A stretch of DNA of 64,000 bases from an uncultured Eubacteriales bacterium (GTDB taxonomy: Bacteria; Bacillota; Clostridia; Lutisporales; Lutisporaceae), in contig OY969939.1 in assembly GCA_963704785.1 (NCBI GenBank), positions 2,383,475 through 2,447,474 of the forward strand, in the 5' to 3' direction. Below, piece after piece: positions 3,023 to 35,222 of this stretch. The translations under genes and the position numbers were made by a program. The notes under the pieces are model-generated. The model was not told the DNA's origin, did not search any database, and saw only the letters and a list, made by a program, of their open reading frames with translations. Each line of letters starts with the position of its first letter. Position 1 is the stretch's first letter.

Positions 3023-3088
3023 CAATAATATATTGCACTAAACAATTTATATTTATAAAATAGCATAAAGGTTTTGGGGGTCACAGTA

Positions 3089-6000
3089 ATGGCAAATCTA
3101 TTTCATATTGGGATTGATGTTGGTTCTACAACTGTCAAGGTAGTTGTATTAGACGATAACCTGAAGTTGGTATATAGCAGATACCAAAGACATTTATCCG
3201 ATATAAAAGGAACACTAGAAGAAGTTCTTCTCGAAGCTTATGAGAAATTCAAAGATGATAGAGCAACTATAATAATAACAGGTTCTGGAGGAATGTCCTT
3301 AGCAAAATTTTTGGGAGTTCCTTTCCTTCAAGAAGTTATAGCAGGTACAAAGGCTATACAAACCTACTATCCACAAACTGATGTTGCGATTGAGCTTGGC
3401 GGAGAAGATGCCAAGATTACGTATTTAAATGGCGGTATAGACCAAAGAATGAATGGAACCTGTGCAGGCGGTACAGGCTCTTTTATAGACCAAATGGCAA
3501 CGCTTCTCCAGACTGATGCCATAGGTTTAAATGAACTAGCTAAAAGCTACAAAACAATTTATCCTATTGCTGCAAGATGCGGAGTTTTTGCGAAGACTGA
3601 TATACAGCCATTGCTAAATGAAGGTGCTGCAAAAGAGGATATAGCTGTGTCTGTGCTTCAGGCTGTGGTAATACAGACCATAAGCGGTTTAGCATGTGGA
3701 AGACCTATTAGAGGTAGATGTAGCGTTTTTAGGAGGACCTTTATTCTTTTTATCAGAGCTTAGGAAGAGATTTATTGAGACTTTGAGCTTAAAGAAGGAA
3801 CAGATAATATTTCCAGAGAATTCTCAACTTTATATTGCAATTGGAGCAGCTTTATCATCAGTGGGAAATAAAAATACTGCCTTTAGTGCATTATATAACA
3901 AGCTAAAAGATGTAGATAGTATTTCTCATGGAGAAACAAACAGACTAGCATCACTTTTTAAGATAAAGAGGATTATGAGGAGTTTAAAGCAAGACATAGA
4001 AATCATTCTGTGCCACAAAGAGAGCTTTCAAGCTTTGAAGGCAAATGCTACCTAGGCATAGATGCAGGCTCTACTACTACAAAGGCAGCACTTATTAATG
4101 ATACAGGAGCAATACTTTATACATATTATGGAAGCAATGAAGGAAGTCCGCTTAAATCTACGGTCAGAATTCTAAAAGAGCTTTACAGTATTATGCCACC
4201 CAAGGCAAAGCTAGTGAATTCTACAGTAACAGGTTATGGGGAAGCACTTTTAAAGACTGCGCTTAAAATAGATATTGGAGAGATTGAGACAGTAGCACAC
4301 TATAAGGCGGCTGGATTTTTCTGCCCTGGTGTGGATTTTATATTAGATATTGGCGGACAGGATATGAAATGTCTGAAAATAAAGGATGGCGTAATAGACA
4401 GCATACTTTTAAATGAAGCTTGTTCTTCTGGTTGTGGCTCATTTCTAGAAACCTTTGCCAAATCTCTGAATATAGGTATAGAAGATTTTGCAGAGCAGGC
4501 ATTGTTTGCAGAGAATCCTGTAGATTTTGGCTCGAGATGTACTGTTTTCATGAACTCAAGAGTAAAGCAGGCACAAAAGGAAGGTGCAACTGTAGGTGAA
4601 ATTCAGCAGGGTTATCATATTCCGTAATAAAGAATGCTTTGTTTAAGGTTATAAAAATAAGAAATCCAAAAGAACTGGGAGAAAAGGTTGTTGTACAAGG
4701 TGGAACCTTCTATAATGATGCAGTATTAAGAAGCTTTGAGCTATTATCAGAAAGAGAAGTTATAAGACCTGATATCGCAGGCATTATGGGTGCATTTGGT
4801 GCAGCATTGATTGCCCACGAAAGATATCAAGAAGGCTAATATTACTCAAATATTAAGTGAAGAGCAGTTAAATAATCTAGATGTCCAAACTGGAATGTCA
4901 AGATGTGGACTCTGCGCAAACAACTGTTTACTGACTATTAATAGATTTGGAAACGGTGGGAAGTACGTTTCAGGAAACAGATGTGAAAGAGGAGCAGGGA
5001 TAGATACACAAAAAAATAAGATTCCGAATTTATTTAAATATAAAGTATAAAAGACTTTTTAACTATACACCTTTAGACAATTTGGAAGCAAAAAGAGGAG
5101 TAATAGGGATTCCAAGAGTATTAAATATGTATGAGAATTATCCCTTCTGGTTTACCTTTTTTACAGAGCTAGGCTTTAGAGTGGAGTTGTCTTCTAGATC
5201 CACCAAGAAGATTTATGAAAAGGGAATAGAGACAATACCATCGGAATCGGTATGCTATCCTGCAAAGCTAGTCCATGGGCATATAATGGAGCTTATAGAA
5301 AGGGGCATTGATGTTATTTTTTATCCTTGCATTGCCTATGAGATAAAGGAACAGGAAAAGGCAGACAATCATTATAATTGCCCAATAGTAACATCATATC
5401 CAGAAGTAATAAAGAACAATATGGATGTATTAAGAGAAAAGGATATACTATTTCTTAAGCCATTTTTACCTTTTGATGATAAAAAAAGATTGGCGAAAAG
5501 ATTATTTGAAGAGTTAAAGATATTTAAAATCTCAGAAAGAGAAGTATGTGAAGCTGCAGACAAGGGATGGCAGGAGCAAGAAAGCTTCAAGAGCTATATA
5601 CGAAAGGCAGGAGAAGATACTCTAAAGACAATAAAGGAGTCGGGGATAAAGGGAATAGTGCTTGCTGGAAGACCATATCATATAGATCCTGAGATAAATC
5701 ATGGAATACCAGATATAATTAATGGTCTTGGAATGGCAGTGTTAACAGAGGATTCAATTGCTCATTTAGGTGAAGTAGAAAGACCTCTTAGAGTAGTTGA
5801 TCAATGGATATATCACTCAAGACTATATGCAGCAGCAAGCTTTGTAGCTACACAACAGGATTTGGAGTTGGTACAGTTAAATTCCTTTGGCTGTGGCTTG
5901 GATGCTGTAACAACAGATCAGGTGCAAGAAATATTAAATGGAAATTCTAAGATATATACAACACTAAAAATAGATGAAGGAAATAATCTAGGAGCAGCAA

Positions 6001-7357
6001 GAATAAGACTTCGTTCACTAAAGGCTGCAATTTAAGAAAGAGAGAAGAATGGATTTAAGCATAAGAAGATAGATAATAAATATAAAAGAGTAATATTTAC
6101 AAAGGAAATGAAAAAGAAACATACAATATTGTCTCCTCAGATGTCTCCTATACATTTTGAATTTGTGGAAGAGGCGTTTAAATACTCAGGCTATAACATT
6201 GTTGTACTTCCATCAGTAGACAAAAAAGCAGTAGATGAAGGATTAAAATATGTTAATAATGATGCTTGCTATCCTGCAATAATTGTTATAGGTCAGCTTA
6301 TAGAAGCATTAAAATCTGGAAAATATGATCTTGATAATACTTCTGTAATAATTTCTCAGACAGGTGGAGGATGCAGAGCTACAAATTATATCGGCTTCTT
6401 AAGAAAAGCATTAAAGGATGCAGGATATGAAAAGATACCTGTAATATCCCTAAATGCATTTGGACTGGAGAAAAACCCGGGCTTCAAGCTATCTATGCCA
6501 TTGTTCAATAGAGCATTGATGGCGCTGGTATATGGTGATTTGCTTATGAAGGTTCTGTATAGAGTAAGACCCTATGAAAAAATAAAGGGCTCTGCGAATC
6601 AATTATATAGAAAATGGGCAGAAAAATGTAAAGAAGATTTGCACTCAGCAAACAGAAATGTCTATAAAAGCAATATATGGAACATAGTTAAAGACTTTGA
6701 CGAACTGGAGTTAAAAAATGAGATAAAGCCAAAAGTAGGATTAGTTGGAGAAATATTGGTAAAGTTTCATCCTACTGCCAATAATAATATAGTTGATATT
6801 GTTGAGACTGAAGGAGCAGAAGCAGTAATGCCCGACCTAATTGATTTCTTCCTGTACAGTGCCTATGGTATGATATATAAATATAAATATTTGTCAGGAA
6901 GTAAAACATCAAAAATTATAGCAGAAGCGATAATAGCGGCAATAGAGTTTTATAGGAAAGACTATAAGGAAGCTTTAGCGAAAAGCAAGAGATTCACTTC
7001 ACCAAAGACTATAAAGGAAATAGCCAACGGAGCTTCATCTGTCGTTACTTAGGAAATCAGACGGGAGAAGGCTGGTTTTTGACAGGAGAAATGGTTGAGC
7101 TAATTGAGAGCGGAGTCAAGAATATAGTATGTATGCAGCCCTTTGCATGTCTTCCAAATCATGTAACAGGAAAAGGAATGATGAAGGAATTGAAGAGAAT
7201 ATATCCCGGAACTAATATAGTTGCCATAGATTATGATCCAGGAGCTAGTGAAGTAAATCAATTAAATAGAATAAAGCTTATGATGTCAGCGGCGTTTGAG
7301 AATTTGGATGGGATTAAGGAATTAGAAGCGGAAGCAATAGATGAAAAGCTTGGTTAG
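3089..7357 (+). CDS. Acyl-CoA dehydratase activase-related giant protein (two BcrA/BadF/HgdC ATPase modules plus a dehydratase-like C-terminal region), interrupted
   Basis: Eight collinear ORFs (3074-7357) read through as one protein of about 1420 codons. It has DVGSTTVK and IDAGSTTTK ATPase starts, then [16 protein letters not shown] and a [11 protein letters not shown]-type C-terminal region. There are six frame changes and an in-frame TAA at 6033-6035. Confidence 0.7.
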
Positions 7358-16935: not shown

Positions 16936-18161
16936 TTAGAATCTCTTACAGATTGCTGCAACTCTTTCTTTAGCTGGTGTAAGGTCTTTATCTTTGTTCT
17001 CGATAGTCCAGTTGATTATATCGGCTATCTCGACCATTTCTTCCTTGCCAAAGCCTCTTGTAGTAGTAGCTGCTGTACCTATACGGATACCGCTTGTTAC
17101 AAATGGGCTTTGAGTTTCAAAAGGAACAGTGTTTTTATTAGCTGTTATGCCTATTTCATCAAGTAGATGCTCTGCTTCCTTGCCTGTTATTCCTTTATTT
17201 CTAAGGTCAACAAGCATTAAATGGTTGTCTGTACCTCCAGATACAAGGTCAAAACCTCTGTCAAGCAATGCTTGTGCAAGAGTCTTAGCGTTCTCAACAA
17301 CCTTTTGTTGGTAATCTTAAATTCCTCAGAAGCAGCTTCTTTGAAGCATACTGCCTTAGCAGCTATCATGTGCATCAGTGGTCCACCTTGAATGCCTGGG
17401 AATATTGTTTTGTCGATATCCTTTGCATACTTAGCCTTGCAGAGTATAGCACCACCTCTTGGACCTCTTAGAGTCTTGTGAGTAGTAGTTGTAACAAAGT
17501 CTGCATATGGTACTGGACTTGGATGAACTCCCGCAGCTACAAGACCTGCAATATGAGCCATATCCACCATCATATAAGCTCCAACCTCGTCACATATTTC
17601 TCTGATTCTTGGAAAATCTATTATTCTTGAGTAAGCACTTGCACCTGCAACTATCATTTTTGGCTTATTCTCAACAGCCATGTTTCTTAGCTCGTCATAG
17701 TTGATATAGCCTGTTTGGTCAACTCCGTAGGATATAAACTTGTAAAGCTTTCCTGAGAAGTTAACTGGGCTGCCATGTGTCAAGTGTCCGCCATGGGATA
17801 GGTTCATACCAAGTACAGTATCACCAGGGGTAAGCACTGCCATATAAACACCCATGTTTGCTTGTGAGCCTGAGTGAGGCTGTACATTTGCATGTTCAGC
17901 TCCATAAAGCTGTTTCATTCTGTCACGAGCAATGTTTTCTGTCATATCAACAAACTCACAGCCACCATAATATCTCTTTCCTGGATAACCTTCTGCATAT
18001 TTGTTTGTAAGGTGAGAGCCCATTGCTTCCATTACTGCTTGGCTTACAAAGTTCTCAGAAGCTATAAGTTCAATCTTGCTTGATTGTCTATTTATTTCTA
18101 GTTCAATGGTTTTAAATAGTTCTGGATCTTGTTGCTTTAAATTTTCGTACATATTGTTCAC
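16936..18161 (-). CDS. glyA: Serine hydroxymethyltransferase, one frame break
   Basis: ORFs 17217-18161 and 16936-17268 join into a full SHMT ([26 protein letters not shown]). The frame changes around 17.30 kb, where AAGATTACC appears where AAGGATTACC is expected. Confidence 0.85.
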
Positions 18162-18172
18162 TCCTTAAATAG

Positions 18173-21042: not shown

Positions 21043-22388
21043 CTACATACCCTTCATGATATCAACCAATTGGTCGATTTCTGATTTTGTTCTCTTTTCT
21101 GTTACGCACAAAAGAAGTGCATTTTCCATGCATGGATAGTCACGAACCAGATCATAGCCACCGAGTATATCATGTTTTAAAAGCTCTGCATTTACTTCAG
21201 AAGCTTTTTTATTGCCTTTTACAACAAATTCCTTGAAGAATGGTTTGTTGAAAACAGGCTTGAATTTACCTGTAGCAATAAGCTGATTGTATGCATAGTG
21301 AGCTTTATTAGTGCTTTGCACTGCAACTTCCTTTAAGCCCTGCTTGCCCATAGTTGAAAGATATATAGCAGCAGTAAGTGCATTTAAAGCTTGGTTAGAA
21401 CAAATATTGGAGGTAGCCTTTTCTCTTCTTATATGCTGTTCTCTTGCTTGCAAGAGTAAGAACATAAGCTCTCTTGCCATCAACATCTGTTGTTTCACCT
21501 ATTATTCTGCCCGGAAGCTTTCTCATAAGCTTAGTTGTAGCTGCCATAAAGCCTAAGTATGGACCGCCGAAGCTTATGCTGTTTCCAAAGGATTGACCTT
21601 CGCCAACAACTATATCAGCACCTATTTCACCAGGAGTCTTTAGAATTCCAAGTGAGATTGGATCAACTACATTTACAATTAATAAAGCTTTGTTTTGATG
21701 TGTTATACTTTCTACTTCAGTTAAATCTTCAACTATACCAAAGAAGTTTGGATTTTGTACGATAACACCTGCTGTAGTATTTGATAAGGCCGCCTTCAAC
21801 TTTTCTATATCTGTAACACCATCTTGACTATCAATCTCTACTACTTCTACTCCAGCAAATCTCATATATGTTGCAAGTACCTTACGTACTTCAGGATGCA
21901 CTGTCTTTGAAACAACAATTGACTTTCTCTTTGTGTTTTCAGCAGCTAGCCTAGCAGCTTCAGCGCAGGCAGTAGCTCCATCATACATTGATGCATTTGC
22001 TACATCCATACCGGTAATATTAGCTATCATAGTCTGATATTCAAATATAACCTGTAAGGTTCCCTGGCTTATTTCAGGCTGATATGGAGTATAAGCTGTA
22101 TAAAACTCGGAACGTAAGGTAATATGCTTGATAACTGAGGGAATATAATGGTCATAAGCACCCGCCCCTAAGAAACATACCATATCATCTGTACTTTTAT
22201 TCTTGTTTGCAATACCATTTATATGCTTCGTAATCTCAAGTTCTGACATAGCCTCACCAAGGTTAAGCTTTCTGGAAAGTTTAACATCAGCAGGTATATC
22301 TGCAAACAGAGCATCAATTGAGTCTATTCCGATTGCTTTGCATCATTTGTTTTTCTTCAGTTTTTGTATTTGGTATATATGGAAACAT
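21043..22388 (-). CDS. gcvPA: Glycine dehydrogenase (decarboxylating) subunit 1, interrupted
   Basis: The N-terminal [15 protein letters not shown] starts at 22388. ORFs 21395-22249 and 21043-21498 continue the protein. There are two frame changes. Confidence 0.8.
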
Positions 22389-27018: not shown

Positions 27019-27044
27019 AAGACTTGGATGGTTATCCAAGTCTT
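27019..27044 (+). terminator. lipA terminator
   Basis: AAGACTTGGAT-GGTT-ATCCAAGTCTT followed by ATTT. Confidence 0.6.
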
Positions 27045-27127
27045 ATTTAATATGTAAGGGTAATGTTTTAGAATTTACTCTGACATATATTTTCCTAATA
27101 TTTTATATTTGTAATCTTAAAATATAA

Positions 27128-27727
27128 TTATCTAAAAAGATATGTGGATAATGGAACTAATTCATTTTGGAGTTTATTATATATTGTATTGATGTCTAAA
27201 TCTTTTATAAAATCACCACAATCAGAGCCTTTTGTATAGATTTTATCAGCTTTATTAAATAGAAATTTCATCTTTTCATTTCCATCTTTTCCTTTTGGCA
27301 TTGTAGTGTCTATTTTTAAAAACTTACATATTCCATTTGTGTCAATCAAAAACCAATCCTCAATCATACGTACAGCTTTTATTTCATTTACTTTTAATGC
27401 CCCCAAACCTTTTAACTCTATCTTTACATTAGCCCAATTTACAGGAGGTTTTATAGAAAAGTCAAAAACATCAGTATCATATGCACAAATAACTTTGAAC
27501 TTAGTATCTTTATTTTTAGTTAATATTCTATTTTTAAATATTCCTATTAACTTTTTAGAGAAATTACCTATTCCATGTAAATCCACAATCTCTATAATAT
27601 CTACTCTAGTTTTTAAAGGATTTTGTTTAATAATATAATCTACTAATGCTTTATAAAATATTTTATCAGTTGACCCTTCTGCGAATATTACTAATCCTTT
27701 ATTAAGTATTCTCTTATTCTTACTCAT
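27128..27727 (-). CDS. Toprim-like (DUF4276/RloB/OLD-type) small protein
   Basis: 199 aa from the ATG at 27727, 2 nt after the ATPase stop. It has LVIFAEGSTDKIFYKAL (Glu motif) and a later CAYDTDVFD (DxD-like motif). Confidence 0.5.
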   Translation of the reverse strand: MSKNKRILNKGLVIFAEGSTDKIFYKALVDYIIKQNPLKTRVDIIEIVDLHGIGNFSKKLIGIFKNRILTKNKDTKFKVICAYDTDVFDFSIKPPVNWANVKIELKGLGALKVNEIKAVRMIEDWFLIDTNGICKFLKIDTTMPKGKDGNEKMKFLFNKADKIYTKGSDCGDFIKDLDINTIYNKLQNELVPLSTYLFR

Positions 27728-27729
27728 TA

Positions 27730-29021
27730 TTAATGCTCCATAAATGAACAAAGAAAACAATTATCCTTATAACTATCTATTAATAAATCGAATATATAGT
27801 CTCCTATTGATGTTTCTTGTTCAGAGGCATATTTAGTTATTGTCTTTTGCATTGATTTTCTTACCCTTCTAAAATTTGCAGTACCATCTTGAAAAGGAAT
27901 ACCTATATAAACCCTATCTAAATTAAAATATTGGATTAAATAAGGTGAATGACTTGATATTAAGATTTTACAATTTCCAATTAATTCAGTCAATATTATA
28001 ATCAGTTTTTGAAACAAGTATGGATGTATTGAATTTTCAAGCTCTTCAAATGTTATTAATGATGTTTTATTTAATTCTGCTAATACTGCAGATGTTAAAA
28101 GAACGAAAATTCTTTTGATCCTGTAGACATCATTTTCATACTAGTTAATTGATTATTATACTTTTCCTTCACTTTTATATCGTATATTTTTTCAGGAATT
28201 TTAAAAGGCAATGATTTTTTTTCGATTTCACCTTGAATATTTGTACTAAAATCAGTACACACAGGCTCAATCTCTTCAATAGTTGGGACAAGACTTTTAA
28301 AAGAATTTATTAACAAATTATATTTGTCAAAATGCTTTTCTCTAAGATAATATACGATATTAGAAATATTATAGCCATTATCCTTATCCAATTGCAAAAT
28401 ATCTTCTTCATCCTGAGTATTAAAAGAAATTACTTCAAATACTTTAGCTACATCTAAAAAACTATTGAAATCAAATCTTAAGTCATTGAGCTCATTTATT
28501 ATTTTTGAATAGTAAACTTCAACATCATTTAACTTATTAACAATTAAATCATTAATACTCACATCTATTTTAGTATCTGCTCTACCTGTCCTCGATGATT
28601 TATAGCATAACTTTTCACTCGTTCTATCTATTAACTTTGAAAACTTACTATTACCATTTTCTTTAATTTTCAAACTCTCATTTATTATCCTAGACCCTTT
28701 ATTCATATTTTTAATCCATTCAAATGAAAATTCATAACTAACAAGTATTTCGGTATCATCTAAGCTAGACTTAAATTCTATAGCAAAAGTGAAGTTATTA
28801 TCTTGTGTTTTATTGTTAATAGGTACACTTCCTATATGCTTCATCATCTTACTTTTTATTTTACTAGGCAGTTTTATGAAGTTTTCAGCAAACTTTATAC
28901 CATCTAGTATATTTGATTTACCATAGTTATTAAGAGCTATTAAAGCAGTAATGTCACTAAATTCAATTATAGTATTAAAAACATTTCTAAAACCATCAAT
29001 TTTCATTTTTGTAATTTCCAT
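27730..29021 (-). CDS. ABC/SMC-like ATPase (AAA_15/AAA_21 type), one frame break
   Basis: GGAGG SD 5 nt before the ATG at 29021. P-loop is ALNNYGKSN. Adding one base to the T4 run at 28113-28116 fuses ORFs 28095-29033 and 27730-28017, giving ...MSTGSKRIFVLL..FEELENSIHP..ILISSHSPYLI. Confidence 0.6.
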
Positions 29022-29182
29022 TGTTACCTCCAAAAGAAATAAAATATTTCATATAATTTTGATTATATTATTAGTATATACTTATTCTATGGAGTTATGC
29101 AATGATTTGTTTCATATTAAAAAAAGTTTGTTCCATTATGTATTCTGAGCTGTATAATATAACTTATGAAGTTAAGAAAAAT

Positions 29183-29234
29183 AAGCAAAATGAGAGGTTT
29201 AAGAAAGTGATTTCTTAAACCTCTCATTTTGCTT
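29183..29234. repeat. Perfect 24-bp stem hairpin
   Basis: AAGCAAAATGAGAGGTTTAAGAAA-GTGA-TTTCTTAAACCTCTCATTTTGCTT, upstream of the ATPase gene. Confidence 0.7.
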
Positions 29235-29311
29235 AAACTAATTATTATAATCCAACACTGCCCAAGTTTGATAATTATCAACTATATCAGTACGGTCTGG
29301 TTCTTTATATA

Positions 29312-29341
29312 AAAGCAGCGGGTTCGGTTATTTTTGCTTTT
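29312..29341 (+). repeat. 30-nt hairpin repeat, copy D (diverged) and left edge of duplicated unit 1
   Basis: AAAGCAGCGGGTTCGGTTATTTTTGCTTTT. Confidence 0.6.
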
Positions 29342-29635
29342 ATGGAGTCTGTTCTGTCTACCATACTCTTTGATATTCCTGCCAGGTTCGTCCTTTTTAT
29401 CGCTCAAAGTACAAATCACTTTTATTGAGATTTTTATTAAATTTTTCCAACATATTACTCATACTTAAAATACTACATGAATTTTTCATTATTACTGTAA
29501 ATAGCAATATCACAAGCTGTTATAAAGTCACTTGAATTACTGATTTTAGATGAACCAACAAGAGAATTAGACAAAAAAAGTGTGGAATCTATTCGTACAC
29601 TTTTTCTTAAAAATAAGGAGACACACATCAGATAG
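29342..29635 (+). pseudogene. Degenerate ABC-transporter ATPase fragment
   Basis: Multiple stops, but ...AISQAVIKSLELLILDEPTRELDKKSVESIRTLF retains the signature-to-Walker-B region. Confidence 0.6.
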
Positions 29636-29990
29636 ACAGTTATTGGCAATGTATTCACTAAATAAGAAGCCAGGGGCTTTAGCACGTTGCTGATATCCCT
29701 TCTGGGTTGATTTATTATATAAAACAAGTATATTTATCTTACCATCATATTCACCTATATATAGATAGCCTATTCCTTTGTCATCAACAATCCAGGCTTC
29801 GGGATATTTAAAGCTAAAGCCATATTTGCTAAAGTTATAGGTATAATCAGAAGCTTCTTTGTAATCCTCTGTATTGTCAGATACTTTTTTAATATTACTT
29901 GGATTCCACTTGCCCTTTACCACACCCTACAACTAACAATGAAATGGTAAATATTAATATAATTAGTACCACAATCTTTTTATGACTCAA
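29567..29990 (-). pseudogene. Deleted and frameshifted paralog of the 31601-32187 lipoprotein gene
   Basis: TTG start with the signal peptide SHKKIVVLIILIFTISLLVVGC. Relative to unit 2 it has an 11-nt deletion and an internal deletion, and its 3' end runs antisense into the ABC fragment. Confidence 0.6.
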
Positions 29991-30023
29991 TCTATATCCC
30001 ACCTTGTTTTTATAGAACAACAA

Positions 30024-30098
30024 GGTGCTAGGCCCGACAAATAGACAGTTAATAAGAAATATATTGTGAATAACTGTCTAACTGACTAGCCTGGCACC
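30024..30098 (+). repeat. Two-tier hairpin element, copy X2
   Basis: Outer stem GGTGCTAGGC/GCCTGGCACC (one wobble); inner stem AGACAGTTA/TAACTGTCT. Confidence 0.55.
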
Positions 30099-30331
30099 TA
30101 TTGTAATATTCCTGCCATATTCTAGTTTTAATAAACTAATTAGATCAACTTATATGTTTTATTATTGGTTTATAACTGTCTCAGTATGTTGTGTGTTTAC
30201 ATTTGTTTGATTGTTAGTATTTTTTGTATTGGTGAAAGTCCAGCTACAACTACAATAAAATATACTGCCAATATAGAAACAACAGTAATTAAAATAATTT
30301 TAAGTTTTTTATTAATAGTATCACCTCCTAT

Positions 30332-31155: not shown

Positions 31156-31185
31156 AAAGCAGTGGGGTCGGTTCTTTTTGCTTTT
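31156..31185 (+). repeat. 30-nt hairpin repeat, copy E and left edge of duplicated unit 2
   Basis: AAAGCAGTGGGGTCGGTTCTTTTTGCTTTT. Confidence 0.65.
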
Positions 31186-31472
31186 ATGGAGTCTGTTCTG
31201 TCTACCATACTCTTTGATATTCCTGCCAGGTTCGTCCTTTTTATAGCTCAAAGTACAAATCACTTTTATTGAGATTTTTATTAAATTTTTCCAACATATT
31301 ACTCATACTTAAAATATTACATGCATTTTTCATTATTACTGTAAATATCAATAGCTGTTATAAAGTCACTTGAATTACTGATTTTAGATGAACCAACAAG
31401 AGAATTAGACAAAAAAGTGTGGAATCTATTCGTACACTTTTTCTTAAAAATAAGGAGACACACATCAGATAG
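31186..31472 (+). pseudogene. Second copy of the degenerate ABC ATPase fragment
   Basis: Near-identical to 29342-29635, including LILDEPTRELD. Confidence 0.6.
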
Positions 31473-31600
31473 ACAGTTATTGGCAATATATTCCCTAAAT
31501 AAGAAGCCAAGGGCTTTAGTACGTTGCTGATACCCTTGACTTATAGACTATTATAATAAAAAATATTAAGCTTATTTCTTTTCAGATATTAATACTCAAG

Positions 31601-32187
31601 TTAATATTTCACACTACCCAAGATGTGCCAAATTTCATTCTTATGCTGTTGGTAGAAATCTTTGTTAACAAATACCACAGCATTCTGATATCCCTTTTGG
31701 GTTGATTTATTATATAAAACAAGTATATTTATCTTACCATCATATTCACCTATATATAGATAGCCTATTCCTTTGTCATCAATAATAAATTCTTTTATCT
31801 TACTAAAATTAGTTGGACTATAGGGACTATAAGAGCCTAAAATAGATATTTTATTTTCTTTATCCCCTTCTATATATACATTTACTCCCCAATCGGGACT
31901 TCCTTCCTTTTTGCTGTAGGCAAATATGATGGAAGTTCATCAACAATCCAGGCTTCGGGATATTTAAAGCTAAAGCCATATTTGCTAAAGCTATAGGTAT
32001 AATCAGAATATCCTTCATAGCCATAGGTATAATCAGAAGCTTCTTTGTAATCCTCTGTATTGTCAGATACTTTTTTAATATTACTTGTATTGCTAGAAGA
32101 TTCCACTTGCCCTTTGCCACACCCTACAACTAACAATAAAATGGTAAATATTAATATAATTAGTACCACAATCTTTTTATGACTCAA
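31601..32187 (-). CDS. Lipoprotein (longer paralog), frame break around 31.91 kb
   Basis: AAGGTGG SD 8 nt before the TTG at 32187 and lipobox LLVVGC. Three reading frames join to give ...FSFKYPEAWIVDE...DWGVNVYIEGDKENK...IGYLYIGEYDGKINILVLYNKSTQKGYQNAVVF...SVKY*. Confidence 0.5.
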
Positions 32188-32220
32188 TCTATATACCACC
32201 TTGTTTTTATAGAACAACAA

Positions 32221-32295
32221 GGTGCTAGGCCCAACAAATAGACAGTTAATAAGAAATATATTGTGAATAACTGTCTAACTGACTAGCCTGGCACC
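32221..32295 (+). repeat. Two-tier hairpin element, copy X3
   Basis: Same as X2 with one or two substitutions. On the minus strand it forms the 5' leader of the 31601-32187 gene. Confidence 0.55.
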
Positions 32296-32861
32296 TATGG
32301 TACGAGCTTTACTGAATCTACAATTTTTTGAATAGTATCTTCCTCTACATATTTTAAGTTAAAATTAAGCAATACAGCTTTTCTATCCTTTTGATTATAG
32401 AAAAAAGCGTGTAAAAGCTCATACTGAATAACTGGCTTGTTGTGTACATTGAAATAACATTTATATTTTTTCCTTAATACAGGACAAAAATAATTATCAA
32501 GAACCTCTGACTCTAACACATCACACATATTTCTAAAAAACAATTCAGGTAAATCATCATGCTGGTAGTCTTCCTCAAAGACATATGCAATATTTTTATC
32601 TTTATAATTCAAAGAAAACCATCCAAAACTACTTTGGGTAAAGTTTAATTCTTTGGGAGCAGAAAACTCTATAAGATGATTTTTATATGTAATCCATTCT
32701 TCATCTTCTGCTATTTTAATGATTTCTGTTTCTATTTCTTCTTTTGTTGCTTTATTATTATCAACATTTGGTGTGTTGGTATTTACTACTTCATTAGAAT
32801 TGTTACAGGATGTAAATAGAAGAATTAAAATAAAACACATTATACATATATATTTTTTCAT
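32295..32861 (-). CDS. Lipoprotein, unknown function
   Basis: 188 aa, lipobox LLFTSC, AAGGAGAAA SD. Confidence 0.55.
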   Translation of the reverse strand: MKKYICIMCFILILLFTSCNNSNEVVNTNTPNVDNNKATKEEIETEIIKIAEDEEWITYKNHLIEFSAPKELNFTQSSFGWFSLNYKDKNIAYVFEEDYQHDDLPELFFRNMCDVLESEVLDNYFCPVLRKKYKCYFNVHNKPVIQYELLHAFFYNQKDRKAVLLNFNLKYVEEDTIQKIVDSVKLVP

Positions 32862-33808: not shown

Positions 33809-33955
33809 TTACTTATTTATTGGATTTATCATGCATGAATGGTATGGATCGCTACCATCTTGTGCATTTACTTCTGTCGGAATTACTACCGATATAGTAA
33901 CTGCAAATAAAATTGCTATTATAAAATATTTTGTTATTGTTTTAAACTTATTCAT
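33809..33955 (-). CDS. 48-aa secreted pro-peptide (candidate signalling peptide)
   Basis: Not in the ORF track. Its ATG overlaps the regulator's stop (ATGAATAA). Sequence is MNKFKTITKYFIIAILFAVTISVVIPTEVNA|QDGSDPYHSCMINPINK, a Sec-type signal followed by a 17-aa tail. Confidence 0.6.
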   Translation of the reverse strand: MNKFKTITKYFIIAILFAVTISVVIPTEVNAQDGSDPYHSCMINPINK

Positions 33956-35222
33956 TATATGCCTCCTTTTTTCTTATTTTTCTATGTATTCTTCCTATAC
34001 ATGAGTACAAATCATCTTTATATACATAATTATCTGTGTTCTCTTCTATGTAACAAACCACATTGTACAATTCTTTTAATAAGTCAACATCATATATATA
34101 GTTAGTTATATTAATTATTCCATCCTTCATATCTTTTTTATCAATAGAAGTATAAATTGTTTTCTTTAGCATACTAAAATATTCATAGCAGGCAGAGGTA
34201 TCTCCTGCCATTAATCTTATCTCCGCATGGGTTTGAGCGACTATTAAATGTCTCTCAGTAATTCTATCCTTATCTAATAGCTCCATTGCTGCTTCGATGT
34301 ATTTAATCGCTTCGTCATAATTCTTAAAAATGCAATATATGTCAGCAATATTATTAAGAGTTAATGACCTACCATTTATATCTTTTTCGTGGAATTCAAG
34401 CAAAGCCATTAAGTAGTATTCTTTTGCTTCTGCATACATTCCATCTCTTTTATATGTAGACCCTATAGCCAAATATGCCGCACCTTTATCACTATTTAAT
34501 TCAGTATTATCACCTGCATACACAATTGACTTCTCTATGTAGCCTCTTGCCTCAGAGTGCCTGCCCACTTCTGAATTTAACATTATACCTCTTCTATAAT
34601 AGTATTTATACAAGGCTGAATTACTAACCTTCTCAGATTTATCAATGTAATTCTGAGCTTTTATAAATAATCTTTCTGCCTCTTTAACTTCTCTCTCCAT
34701 ATAATGATATTCTGCCAATTCAACCGTTATAATTATTAATGTATCAATATTTTCCATATCAACTAGATTTAAGGCTTCATTATAATATTCTAAGGTTTTA
34801 ATAATATCATTTCTATAGTAAAAGTGTTTTCCAAGGCATCTTATCATTAAAGCAGTTTCGTTTATAAGTCCAAACTTAACACACAATGCTCTTACTTTTT
34901 CCAGCAAAGCATAGTCCTTATCTTCTTTATAGAGCATTATATCTCTATAAATTTTAATTGCAAAATTTTTGATTTGTCCAGCATCATCACATATTAGCTC
35001 GTCCCAGCCTTCATCAAGAGTTCTAAGCATTATGCATTTAAAGGTTGGTGAAGAAATTTTATTAAAACCACAGTAATTTCTCACAGCCTTGAGAGATAAT
35101 TCAGTTATCTTTTCTGTTTCATAAAAATCTTTTATAGAACCATACTTTTCTTCAATTTTCTTTTTTATTTGTTGCCCCTCATTTAAAAATTCTATGTCTT
35201 CTGGCATTAACTTTTTTCCCAT
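33948..35222 (-). CDS. TPR-repeat regulator with a degenerate N-terminal HTH (RRNPP-like)
   Basis: 424 aa. The N-terminus GQQIKKKIEEKYGSIKDFYETEKITELSLKAVRNYCGF is XRE-HTH-like. At least 5 TPR-like repeats follow (e.g. AYLAIGSTYKRDGMYAEAKEYYLMAL, LNNIADIYCIFKNYDEAIKYIEAAM). Confidence 0.6.
   Translation of the reverse strand: MGKKLMPEDIEFLNEGQQIKKKIEEKYGSIKDFYETEKITELSLKAVRNYCGFNKISSPTFKCIMLRTLDEGWDELICDDAGQIKNFAIKIYRDIMLYKEDKDYALLEKVRALCVKFGLINETALMIRCLGKHFYYRNDIIKTLEYYNEALNLVDMENIDTLIIITVELAEYHYMEREVKEAERLFIKAQNYIDKSEKVSNSALYKYYYRRGIMLNSEVGRHSEARGYIEKSIVYAGDNTELNSDKGAAYLAIGSTYKRDGMYAEAKEYYLMALLEFHEKDINGRSLTLNNIADIYCIFKNYDEAIKYIEAAMELLDKDRITERHLIVAQTHAEIRLMAGDTSACYEYFSMLKKTIYTSIDKKDMKDGIINITNYIYDVDLLKELYNVVCYIEENTDNYVYKDDLYSCIGRIHRKIRKKEAYNE

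Follow-up and report, generated by a model that had tools for sequence, protein, structure and literature searches.

A low-GC two-gene cassette of an uncultured Lutisporaceae bacterium resembles anti-phage systems that pair an ABC ATPase with a stand-alone Toprim protein

The locus described here lies on contig OY969939.1 (assembly GCA_963704785.1) of an uncultured Eubacteriales bacterium of the family Lutisporaceae, within a stretch of 64,000 nucleotides (nt) that we refer to as the window and whose coordinates are used throughout. Two coupled genes are arranged head to tail on the minus strand at 27128-29021. The first encodes an ATP-binding cassette (ABC)-type ATPase (AAA_15/AAA_21, HEC-01A-like; 27730-29021, 430 amino acids (aa) after a one-base repair), and the second encodes a stand-alone Toprim-like protein of 199 aa (27128-27727), which resembles DUF4276, RloB, HEC-01B and AbiLii and is presumed to be a nuclease effector. 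The open reading frame (ORF) of the ATPase starts with the ATG at 29021, 5 nt downstream of a GGAGG ribosome-binding site. As assembled, it is an ORF of 312 aa (28095-29033) that terminates at 28095-28097, and the C-terminal third is found in another frame, which extends to the TAA at 27730-27732. The gene is thus split by a frameshift into two pieces (28095-29021 and 27730-28140). The frameshift site is an A4 homopolymer at 28113-28116 (a T-run on the plus strand) from which one A is missing, and insertion of a single A into this run yields a continuous ATPase of 430 aa. The ATG of the small gene, at 27727, is positioned 2 nt past the ATPase stop and is preceded by GGAG 8 nt upstream; the gene ends at 27128. 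All motifs quoted in the original prediction, which had recognized the two coupled genes from the letters of the sequence, are present, including LVIFAEGSTDK and YDTDVFD in the small protein. The pair has a GC content of 25.3%, compared with a window mean of 34.6% (standard deviation 3.4%, 1.9-kb windows), and is the lowest-GC 1.9-kb stretch in the window (rank 4 of 621).

The first protein is an ABC ATPase of the OLD/PtuA/SMC-head group, an assignment based on Pfam cut-offs, invariant motifs and the solved structures closest to its model. In agreement with the prediction, the repaired protein exceeds the Pfam cut-offs of both AAA_21 (27 bits) and AAA_15 (32.1 bits), with scores of 59.9 and 56.1 bits, respectively. 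Once the base at 28113-28116 is restored, the full set of motifs is in place, namely, Walker A (ALNNYGKSN), the signature (STGSKR), Walker B (ITFEELE, FEELENSIHP) and the H-loop (ILISSHSP), and 51 homologues show no variation at residues G34, K35, S299, G301, E326, E327 and H358. The AlphaFold2 model of the ATPase has a predicted local distance difference test score (pLDDT) of 88.9. In Foldseek comparisons it matched PtuA of Septu and type I-A retrons, the OLD protein of Thermus scotoductus (6p74) and the heads of SMC and Rad50, with E-values of 1e-14 to 1e-11 and template modelling (TM) scores of 0.4-0.5, while the sequence matches to solved structures were marginal. AriA is absent from the top 50 structural matches of this model. 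Weak sequence matches to RecF and SMC_N were also obtained, and the scores for the NCBIfam equivalogs MAD3 and PtuA were far under their cut-offs. Among the PADLOC profiles, HEC-01A gave the best match (5e-25); matches were also obtained to AbiLi (6e-21), AriA (7e-20) and GajA and Old (1e-13 to 1e-14).

The small protein belongs to a sizeable family. An exhaustive profile search (E<=1e-3) retrieved 557 representative clusters at 50% identity, nearly all of ~200 aa. Among 115 full-length relatives, 64 match DUF4276 (E<=0.01; best 7e-9) and 56 match OLD-like_TOPRIM (E<=0.01; best 7e-7), with smaller numbers matching RloB (21) and DUF3226 (13), suggesting that the family sits between these Pfam families. 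Furthermore, most of the relatives match at least one HEC-01B model of PADLOC and 47 match AbiLii (E<=1e-3). For the window protein itself, the best PADLOC model is HEC-01B (22 bits, E 3e-5, 61% of the model). Across the 115 relatives, E123 and Y164 are invariant, and E17, G18, D84, D86 and D124 show a conservation of 90% or more. The AlphaFold2 model (pLDDT 91.4) consists of a (beta-alpha)x4 core followed by a helical C-terminal part. In this model, E17 is located just past strand 1 (residues 9-16), D84-x-D86 at the end of strand 3 (residues 75-84) and E123-D124 past strand 4. The Toprim domain has been defined, and DUF4276 and RloB assigned to the Toprim superfamily, in previous work, and the placement of the Glu and DxD residues in our model corresponds to the arrangement described there (PMC12065111). 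In addition, the best match among viral models (BFVD) is an RloB-like protein (E 1.6e-3, TM 0.47). Profiles and motifs thus lend good support to the identification of the small protein as a putative Toprim-type nuclease, which fold comparison, considered below, does not confirm.

The two genes are consistently found together. In 16 of 17 loci from species-representative genomes, an ATPase homologue is encoded immediately upstream of the small gene on the same strand, with the ORFs abutting or overlapping, indicating that the pair is not a chance juxtaposition. The exceptions look decayed: one locus (L021) is without the ATPase, and in another (L022) the ATPase is kept and the small gene is frameshifted. 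The genome scan was seeded with an alignment of eight sequences, that of the 115 sequences being too diverse. Moreover, the pairwise identity matrices of the two proteins are strongly correlated (Mantel r 0.89, reached in 0 of 5000 permutations), and the pair thus co-evolves. No third gene is conserved across the loci of the pair; candidates downstream of it in three loci (L007, L016 and L018) encode mutually unrelated proteins. As a separate observation, the upstream ATPases of L007 and L014 are ~360 aa long and ~29% identical to the window ATPase, with small proteins that are 37-43% identical to that of the window, and these ATPases may form a distinct sub-branch.

The pair also behaves as a discrete cassette. 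The closest relative (L001) displays 75% and 70% identity in the two proteins and occupies another genomic context, with pilin and sortase genes as well as a resolvase fragment as its neighbours. At the nucleotide level it resembles the window between 29122 and 27115 (78.6% over 2012 nt), and the abrupt loss of similarity at both ends defines a mobile unit of ~2.0 kb composed of ~100 nt of upstream sequence and the two genes. On this basis, the cassette occupies 27115-29122 of the minus strand and comprises an upstream control region, the ATPase gene and the Toprim-like gene. The upstream region (29022-29122), conserved between the window and the relative, contains TTGCAT (29102-29097) and TATACT (29078-29073) separated by an 18-nt spacer, and the second hexamer is TATAAT in the relative. 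This block may represent the promoter of the cassette; a consensus scan in which both hexamers had to match at 4 or more of 6 positions missed it. Two hairpins flank the cassette. One, revealed by a terminator scan at 27019-27044, is terminator-like on both strands and separates the cassette from the convergent lipA gene. It lies beyond the stretch conserved with the relative and therefore belongs to the insertion site and not to the cassette. The other is a perfect hairpin at 29182-29235 with 25-bp arms (29182-29206 and 29211-29235); on the minus strand, a tail rich in T follows. The structure is terminator-like and would insulate the cassette against upstream transcription. The original prediction had placed the pair between the lipA terminator and a perfect hairpin of 24 bp; both structures exist, but the second, whose arms are one base pair longer, is not conserved in the relative and falls outside the transferred cassette. 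The GC content of the cassette is below that of its flanks in 11 of 12 relatives, and the small-protein family is patchily distributed, mostly over Bacillota and Bacteroidota. One locus (L013), on a contig labelled MAG: Bosea thiooxidans, has flanks of ~35% GC, whereas Bosea typically has a much higher GC content. Mis-binning of this contig is therefore probable, and the locus is not countable as an alphaproteobacterial occurrence.

The genomic surroundings of annotated relatives point to defence more clearly than those of the window cassette. In Clostridium perfringens (L023/L024), the pair forms the terminal cargo of an island encoding an integrase, cI/Cro-like helix-turn-helix (HTH) proteins, DnaB (or an IstB-like protein) and sigma-70. 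This element looks like a phage satellite or a small integrative island and recalls P4 and its PARIS system. On a Bacillus cereus megaplasmid, the pair is found among genes for a KAP NTPase, an SLFN-like helicase, a second AAA_21 pair, HD-CE and PemK, and in Clostridium sp. CS001 it is accompanied by Abi_2, Gp49/HTH, an AAA_21+RloB pair and Cap15. In two loci, a second and different pair of an AAA_21 ATPase and a small protein is encoded within 10 kb of the cassette (L025, 5424-7350; L026, 18305-20313, where the small protein is RloB), so that paralogous ATPase and Toprim systems co-locate. The 148 neighbouring ORFs of 11 further loci include matches to components of MADS (mad2, mad3 and mad8), SspH, methyltransferases and PD-Lambda-5_B, from which no enrichment is claimed.

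In the window, the neighbouring genes are housekeeping ones, encoding the glycine cleavage system, GlyA, serine dehydratase, LipA, enzymes of pantothenate synthesis and a tRNA-synthetase editing-domain protein. PADLOC matches to these genes are of a generic kind, comprising DndA/SspA-like aminotransferases, a UvrD-type helicase and radical-SAM proteins. Farther out, the sequence is low in GC and contains decayed, partly duplicated fragments of PsbP_2-like lipoprotein genes and the gene for a tetratricopeptide repeat (TPR) protein. The low GC content (25-31%) beside the cassette extends to ~35.3 kb. The block of decayed repeats that had been noticed next to the pair proved to be a segmental duplication in which 29312-30105 recurs at 31156-32302 with 96-98% identity and indels; both copies are decayed and hold fragments of the PsbP_2-like lipoprotein gene (signal peptide MLFYKNKV...LLVVGCGKG). 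The TPR-repeat protein, of 424 aa, is encoded at 33948-35222 of the minus strand and is possibly an RNPP/Rgg-type regulator. One of the window ORFs matches the generic 'TPR' model of PADLOC (5e-9). The suggestion that the pair constitutes an acquired islet therefore holds in part: low GC content and a transferred cassette are borne out, but in the source genome the pair is not part of a defence island, its neighbours being housekeeping or decayed lipoprotein genes.

Taken together, we consider it likely that the locus is a horizontally acquired anti-phage cassette of 2.0 kb belonging to the class in which an ABC ATPase is paired with a stand-alone Toprim nuclease, and that the frameshift in its first gene is an assembly error. 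The defence-class architecture had been proposed before, and the best PADLOC matches of the two proteins, HEC-01A and HEC-01B, agree with it. Both genes would be transcribed together from a promoter of their own, with their translation coupled. On the model of PARIS and of PtuA-PtuB of Septu and retrons, the ATPase would oligomerize through its ABC heads, bind the 199-aa Toprim protein and keep it inactive in a complex, until a signal from the phage or an altered ATP state frees or activates the nuclease. The latter could then cleave a nucleic-acid substrate (DNA, or tRNA as in the case of AriB) by means of a metal site formed by Glu17, Asp84-x-Asp86 and Glu123-Asp124, and we infer that such cleavage would halt phage propagation in the source organism, possibly at the cost of the cell.

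Several results weigh against this explanation. First, on its own the small protein is under every Toprim-type Pfam cut-off: it scores 19.2 bits with OLD-like_TOPRIM (PF20469; cut-off 23.2, E 1.8e-3) and 12.8 bits with DUF4276 (PF14103; cut-off 30.2). The predicted Toprim of the DUF4276/RloB/OLD kind thus stands at the level of the family, through its 115 relatives, but not for the window protein, which passes no curated cut-off; of the profile checks that had been suggested, those for AAA_15 and AAA_21 came out clearly, those for the Toprim-type families stayed under the cut-off and that for DUF4435 gave no match. Second, no match with E<0.01 was found when the model of the small protein was compared with the PDB using Foldseek, and no Toprim protein is among the top 50, so that comparison with solved structures does not confirm the Toprim assignment. 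The matches that were obtained are generic flavodoxin-, KaiC- and lumazine-synthase-like alpha/beta folds (best E 0.011). A profile of the 115 relatives searched against PDB sequences produced just a match of 29 residues at the N-terminus to PH0156/DUF3226 (E 0.23); a match to TCA17 in the same search was rejected as spurious. Third, there is neither another bona fide defence system nor a mobility gene around the window cassette, and tblastn searches returned 0 matches in 50,697 phage records and a single match among 72,556 plasmids. Furthermore, the ATPase gene is broken as assembled, and in one published test HEC-01 failed to protect E. coli MG1655 (bioRxiv 10.1101/2024.01.29.577857).

An alternative, which we regard as rather unlikely, is that the pair is not immune in function and represents either a selfish addiction module of the toxin-antitoxin type or an accessory of DNA repair or recombination, in which a Rad50/RecF-like ATPase cooperates with a Toprim nuclease. 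The structural resemblance of the ATPase to SMC and Rad50 heads, its weak RecF and SMC_N matches and the mostly housekeeping neighbours, in the window as well as in several loci of Bacteroidota, would all fit such a role, and PARIS itself acts as a toxin-antitoxin pair (PMC13064643). However, the patchy occurrence over Bacillota and Bacteroidota and the behaviour of the pair as a low-GC cassette speak against it, as do the annotated loci, which embed the pair in islands with Abi_2, Cap15, PemK, a KAP NTPase and an integrase. Moreover, the nearest relatives by profile are all defence components, and addiction and abortive infection are not mutually exclusive.

It is also conceivable, though improbable in our judgement, that this divergent branch, with its 557 clusters and a window member under the curated cut-off of each Toprim-type Pfam family examined, is an anti-phage system that differs in function from the known ones and has a trigger and a target peculiar to it. 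An example would be a minimal Toprim RNase of 199 aa gated by an ABC ATPase. If true, the cassette would be the smallest tractable model of how ABC ATPases license stand-alone Toprim effectors.

Quite unlikely, in turn, is that the locus is a genuine pseudogene remnant, in which an ATPase truncated at 312 aa has lost Walker B and the H-loop, so that the module is inactive or the small protein alone is made. The window sequence as given, with A4 and the stop at 28095-28097, and the gene call of the source, a product of 308 aa (P0010), are in line with truncation; in addition, the neighbouring 29.3-33.9 kb is full of decayed gene fragments, and decayed copies of the pair occur in L021 and L022, as described above. 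Against decay stands an independent assembly. An exact-match look-up of the 199-aa protein recovered a Logan contig of 4418 bp (L005; run ERR10755943) that is identical to window 29008-24592 over its 4418 bp except for one gap, A5 instead of A4, and in which the ATPase ORF is uninterrupted; within the cassette there is no other substitution. The base restored in this contig is exactly the one whose insertion had been predicted at 28113-28116. The same contig alone was returned by an exact-match look-up of lipA, and those of two other window proteins found no match, probably owing to different start codons. The ATPase homologues listed are full length (~416-461 aa), but for two shorter entries, one of which is labelled partial in the source. 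Furthermore, core genes of the same window are broken in a similar manner. The glyA gene for serine hydroxymethyltransferase (16939-18164, minus strand) is split into two overlapping ORFs, 17220-18164 and 16939-17316, which correspond to Pfam positions 1-315 and 301-399. A single G is missing near 17322, and the reading ...EEFK|DYQQKVVEN... needs one extra G; this split is likely to be an assembly indel and not a sign of a pseudogene. Likewise, gcvPA, encoding subunit 1 of the glycine-cleavage P-protein (21046-22342, minus strand), is divided into 21398-22342 (Pfam positions 16-307) and 21046-21498 (positions 300-428) by one surplus G near 21452, after ...VLTL. The latter site is not a homopolymer, implying that the indel errors of this assembly go beyond homopolymers. 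A gene of the 'CoA enzyme activase' type with BcrAD_BadFG and DUF2229 (3059-7354, plus strand) is found in several overlapping ORFs (3059-3760, 3693-4052, 3962-4624, 6036-7049 and 6968-7354) and is probably also broken by indel errors. At least three broken genes in 64 kb, including two of core metabolism, fit assembly indels far better than decay. We thus conclude from the A5 run and intact ORF of the independent contig and from the single-base indels in glyA and gcvPA that the ATPase frameshift is very probably an assembly artefact and the real gene intact. Phase variation, with A4 and A5 as a real on/off switch of a costly system, is unlikely: the run is just 4-5 nt long, and indels outside homopolymers break core genes nearby. 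For annotation, the lesson is that what looks like a pseudogene here probably reflects an error of this assembly, in which core genes have similar single-base indels.

Membership in PARIS (AriA/AriB), Gabija or OLD in the strict sense is highly improbable, since, despite the PADLOC matches of the ATPase to AriA, GajA and Old, the HEC-01A models outscore theirs, the small protein has no DUF4435/AriB match (only 1-2 of the 115 relatives have one), and the Toprim protein is encoded by a separate gene, unfused to the ATPase and with no UvrD-type GajB helicase gene adjacent.

Two-gene modules that join an ABC ATPase to a Toprim protein are widespread, and AbiL, MADS3-4 and RloAB have been grouped with PARIS as systems of this class (PMC11464382, PMC13064643). 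The original prediction held that no function had been defined by experiment for a combination of an ATPase and a DUF4276-like protein, a statement that is outdated, given the work on AbiL (PMC13064643, PMC11464382) and MAD3/MAD4 (PMC12065111) and the tests of HEC-01; its interpretation was largely right, and its novelty overstated. PARIS shares with the window a coupled pair of an ABC ATPase, which is the sensor in PARIS, and a separate Toprim protein, which is the nuclease effector there. AriB is, however, a 35-kDa DUF4435 protein, in contrast to the DUF4276/RloB-like window protein of 199 aa. In PARIS, the ATPase scaffold sequesters the nuclease, trigger binding frees it, and tRNA is cleaved. 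To our knowledge, the mechanism has been solved for no member of the class other than PARIS, AbiL, RloAB, MAD3/4 and HEC-01 being mechanistic blanks. Septu and type I-A retrons offer a parallel in structure: of the solved structures, the PtuA chains match the ATPase model best (E ~5e-14, TM 0.4-0.5), and in PtuA-PtuB an ATPase oligomer regulates a small nuclease partner. PtuB, however, is an HNH nuclease and not a Toprim protein, and the sequence similarity is marginal (E 1e-4 to 1e-2), which sets the window pair apart from Septu.

Closer counterparts are found among pairs with a small Toprim partner. MAD3/MAD4 of MADS is a pair of an ATPase and a DUF4276 protein (PMC12065111), and like RloA/RloB it resembles the window cassette in joining an AAA_21-type ATPase to a Toprim protein, DUF4276 in Mad4 and RloB in the other. 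Some cassette relatives are also located near homologues of mad2, mad3 and mad8. Membership in MADS was nevertheless rejected, as the ATPase reaches 44.9 bits with the MAD3 equivalog (NF047739), whose cut-off is 420, and neither a methyltransferase nor a type I restriction-modification gene adjoins the window cassette. AbiL (AbiLi/AbiLii) of Lactococcus lactis is a validated two-gene abortive-infection system with an ATPase and a Toprim protein (PMC13064643, PMC11464382). It combines, like the window pair, a Rad50/SMC-type ABC ATPase with a small Toprim/OLD-like protein, but the AbiLi match is partial (positions 78-249 of 326), and the window protein matches AbiLii with an E-value of 0.026. 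HEC-01 (Hma-embedded candidate 01 of PADLOC-DB v2) was described as an ABC ATPase paired with a TOPRIM protein (Payne et al., bioRxiv 10.1101/2024.01.29.577857), and a representative from cold-seep microbes gave E. coli B protection from one or more of T4, T5 and T7 (PMC12881386), in disagreement with the negative test in MG1655. Here the architecture is the same, with an AAA_21-type ABC ATPase followed by a stand-alone TOPRIM protein of ~200 aa in a two-gene operon, and the homologues of HEC-01A and HEC-01B are adjacent on one strand in the window, 2 nt apart (the best PADLOC matches by E-value, with the per-model thresholds of PADLOC not applied). By contrast, the window cassette is not embedded in an Hma system, and its B-protein match is weak, the window subfamily being poorly covered by the existing HEC-01B models. 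As available profile models catch the cassette weakly, it could serve to extend detection models and as a small test case; it is a compact, sharply bounded and low-GC Firmicute example of 2.0 kb with a candidate promoter of its own. Overall, the closest relatives of the cassette are the PADLOC candidate HEC-01, lactococcal AbiL, RloA/RloB and MAD3/MAD4, and the cassette is a divergent member of a known and partly validated class.

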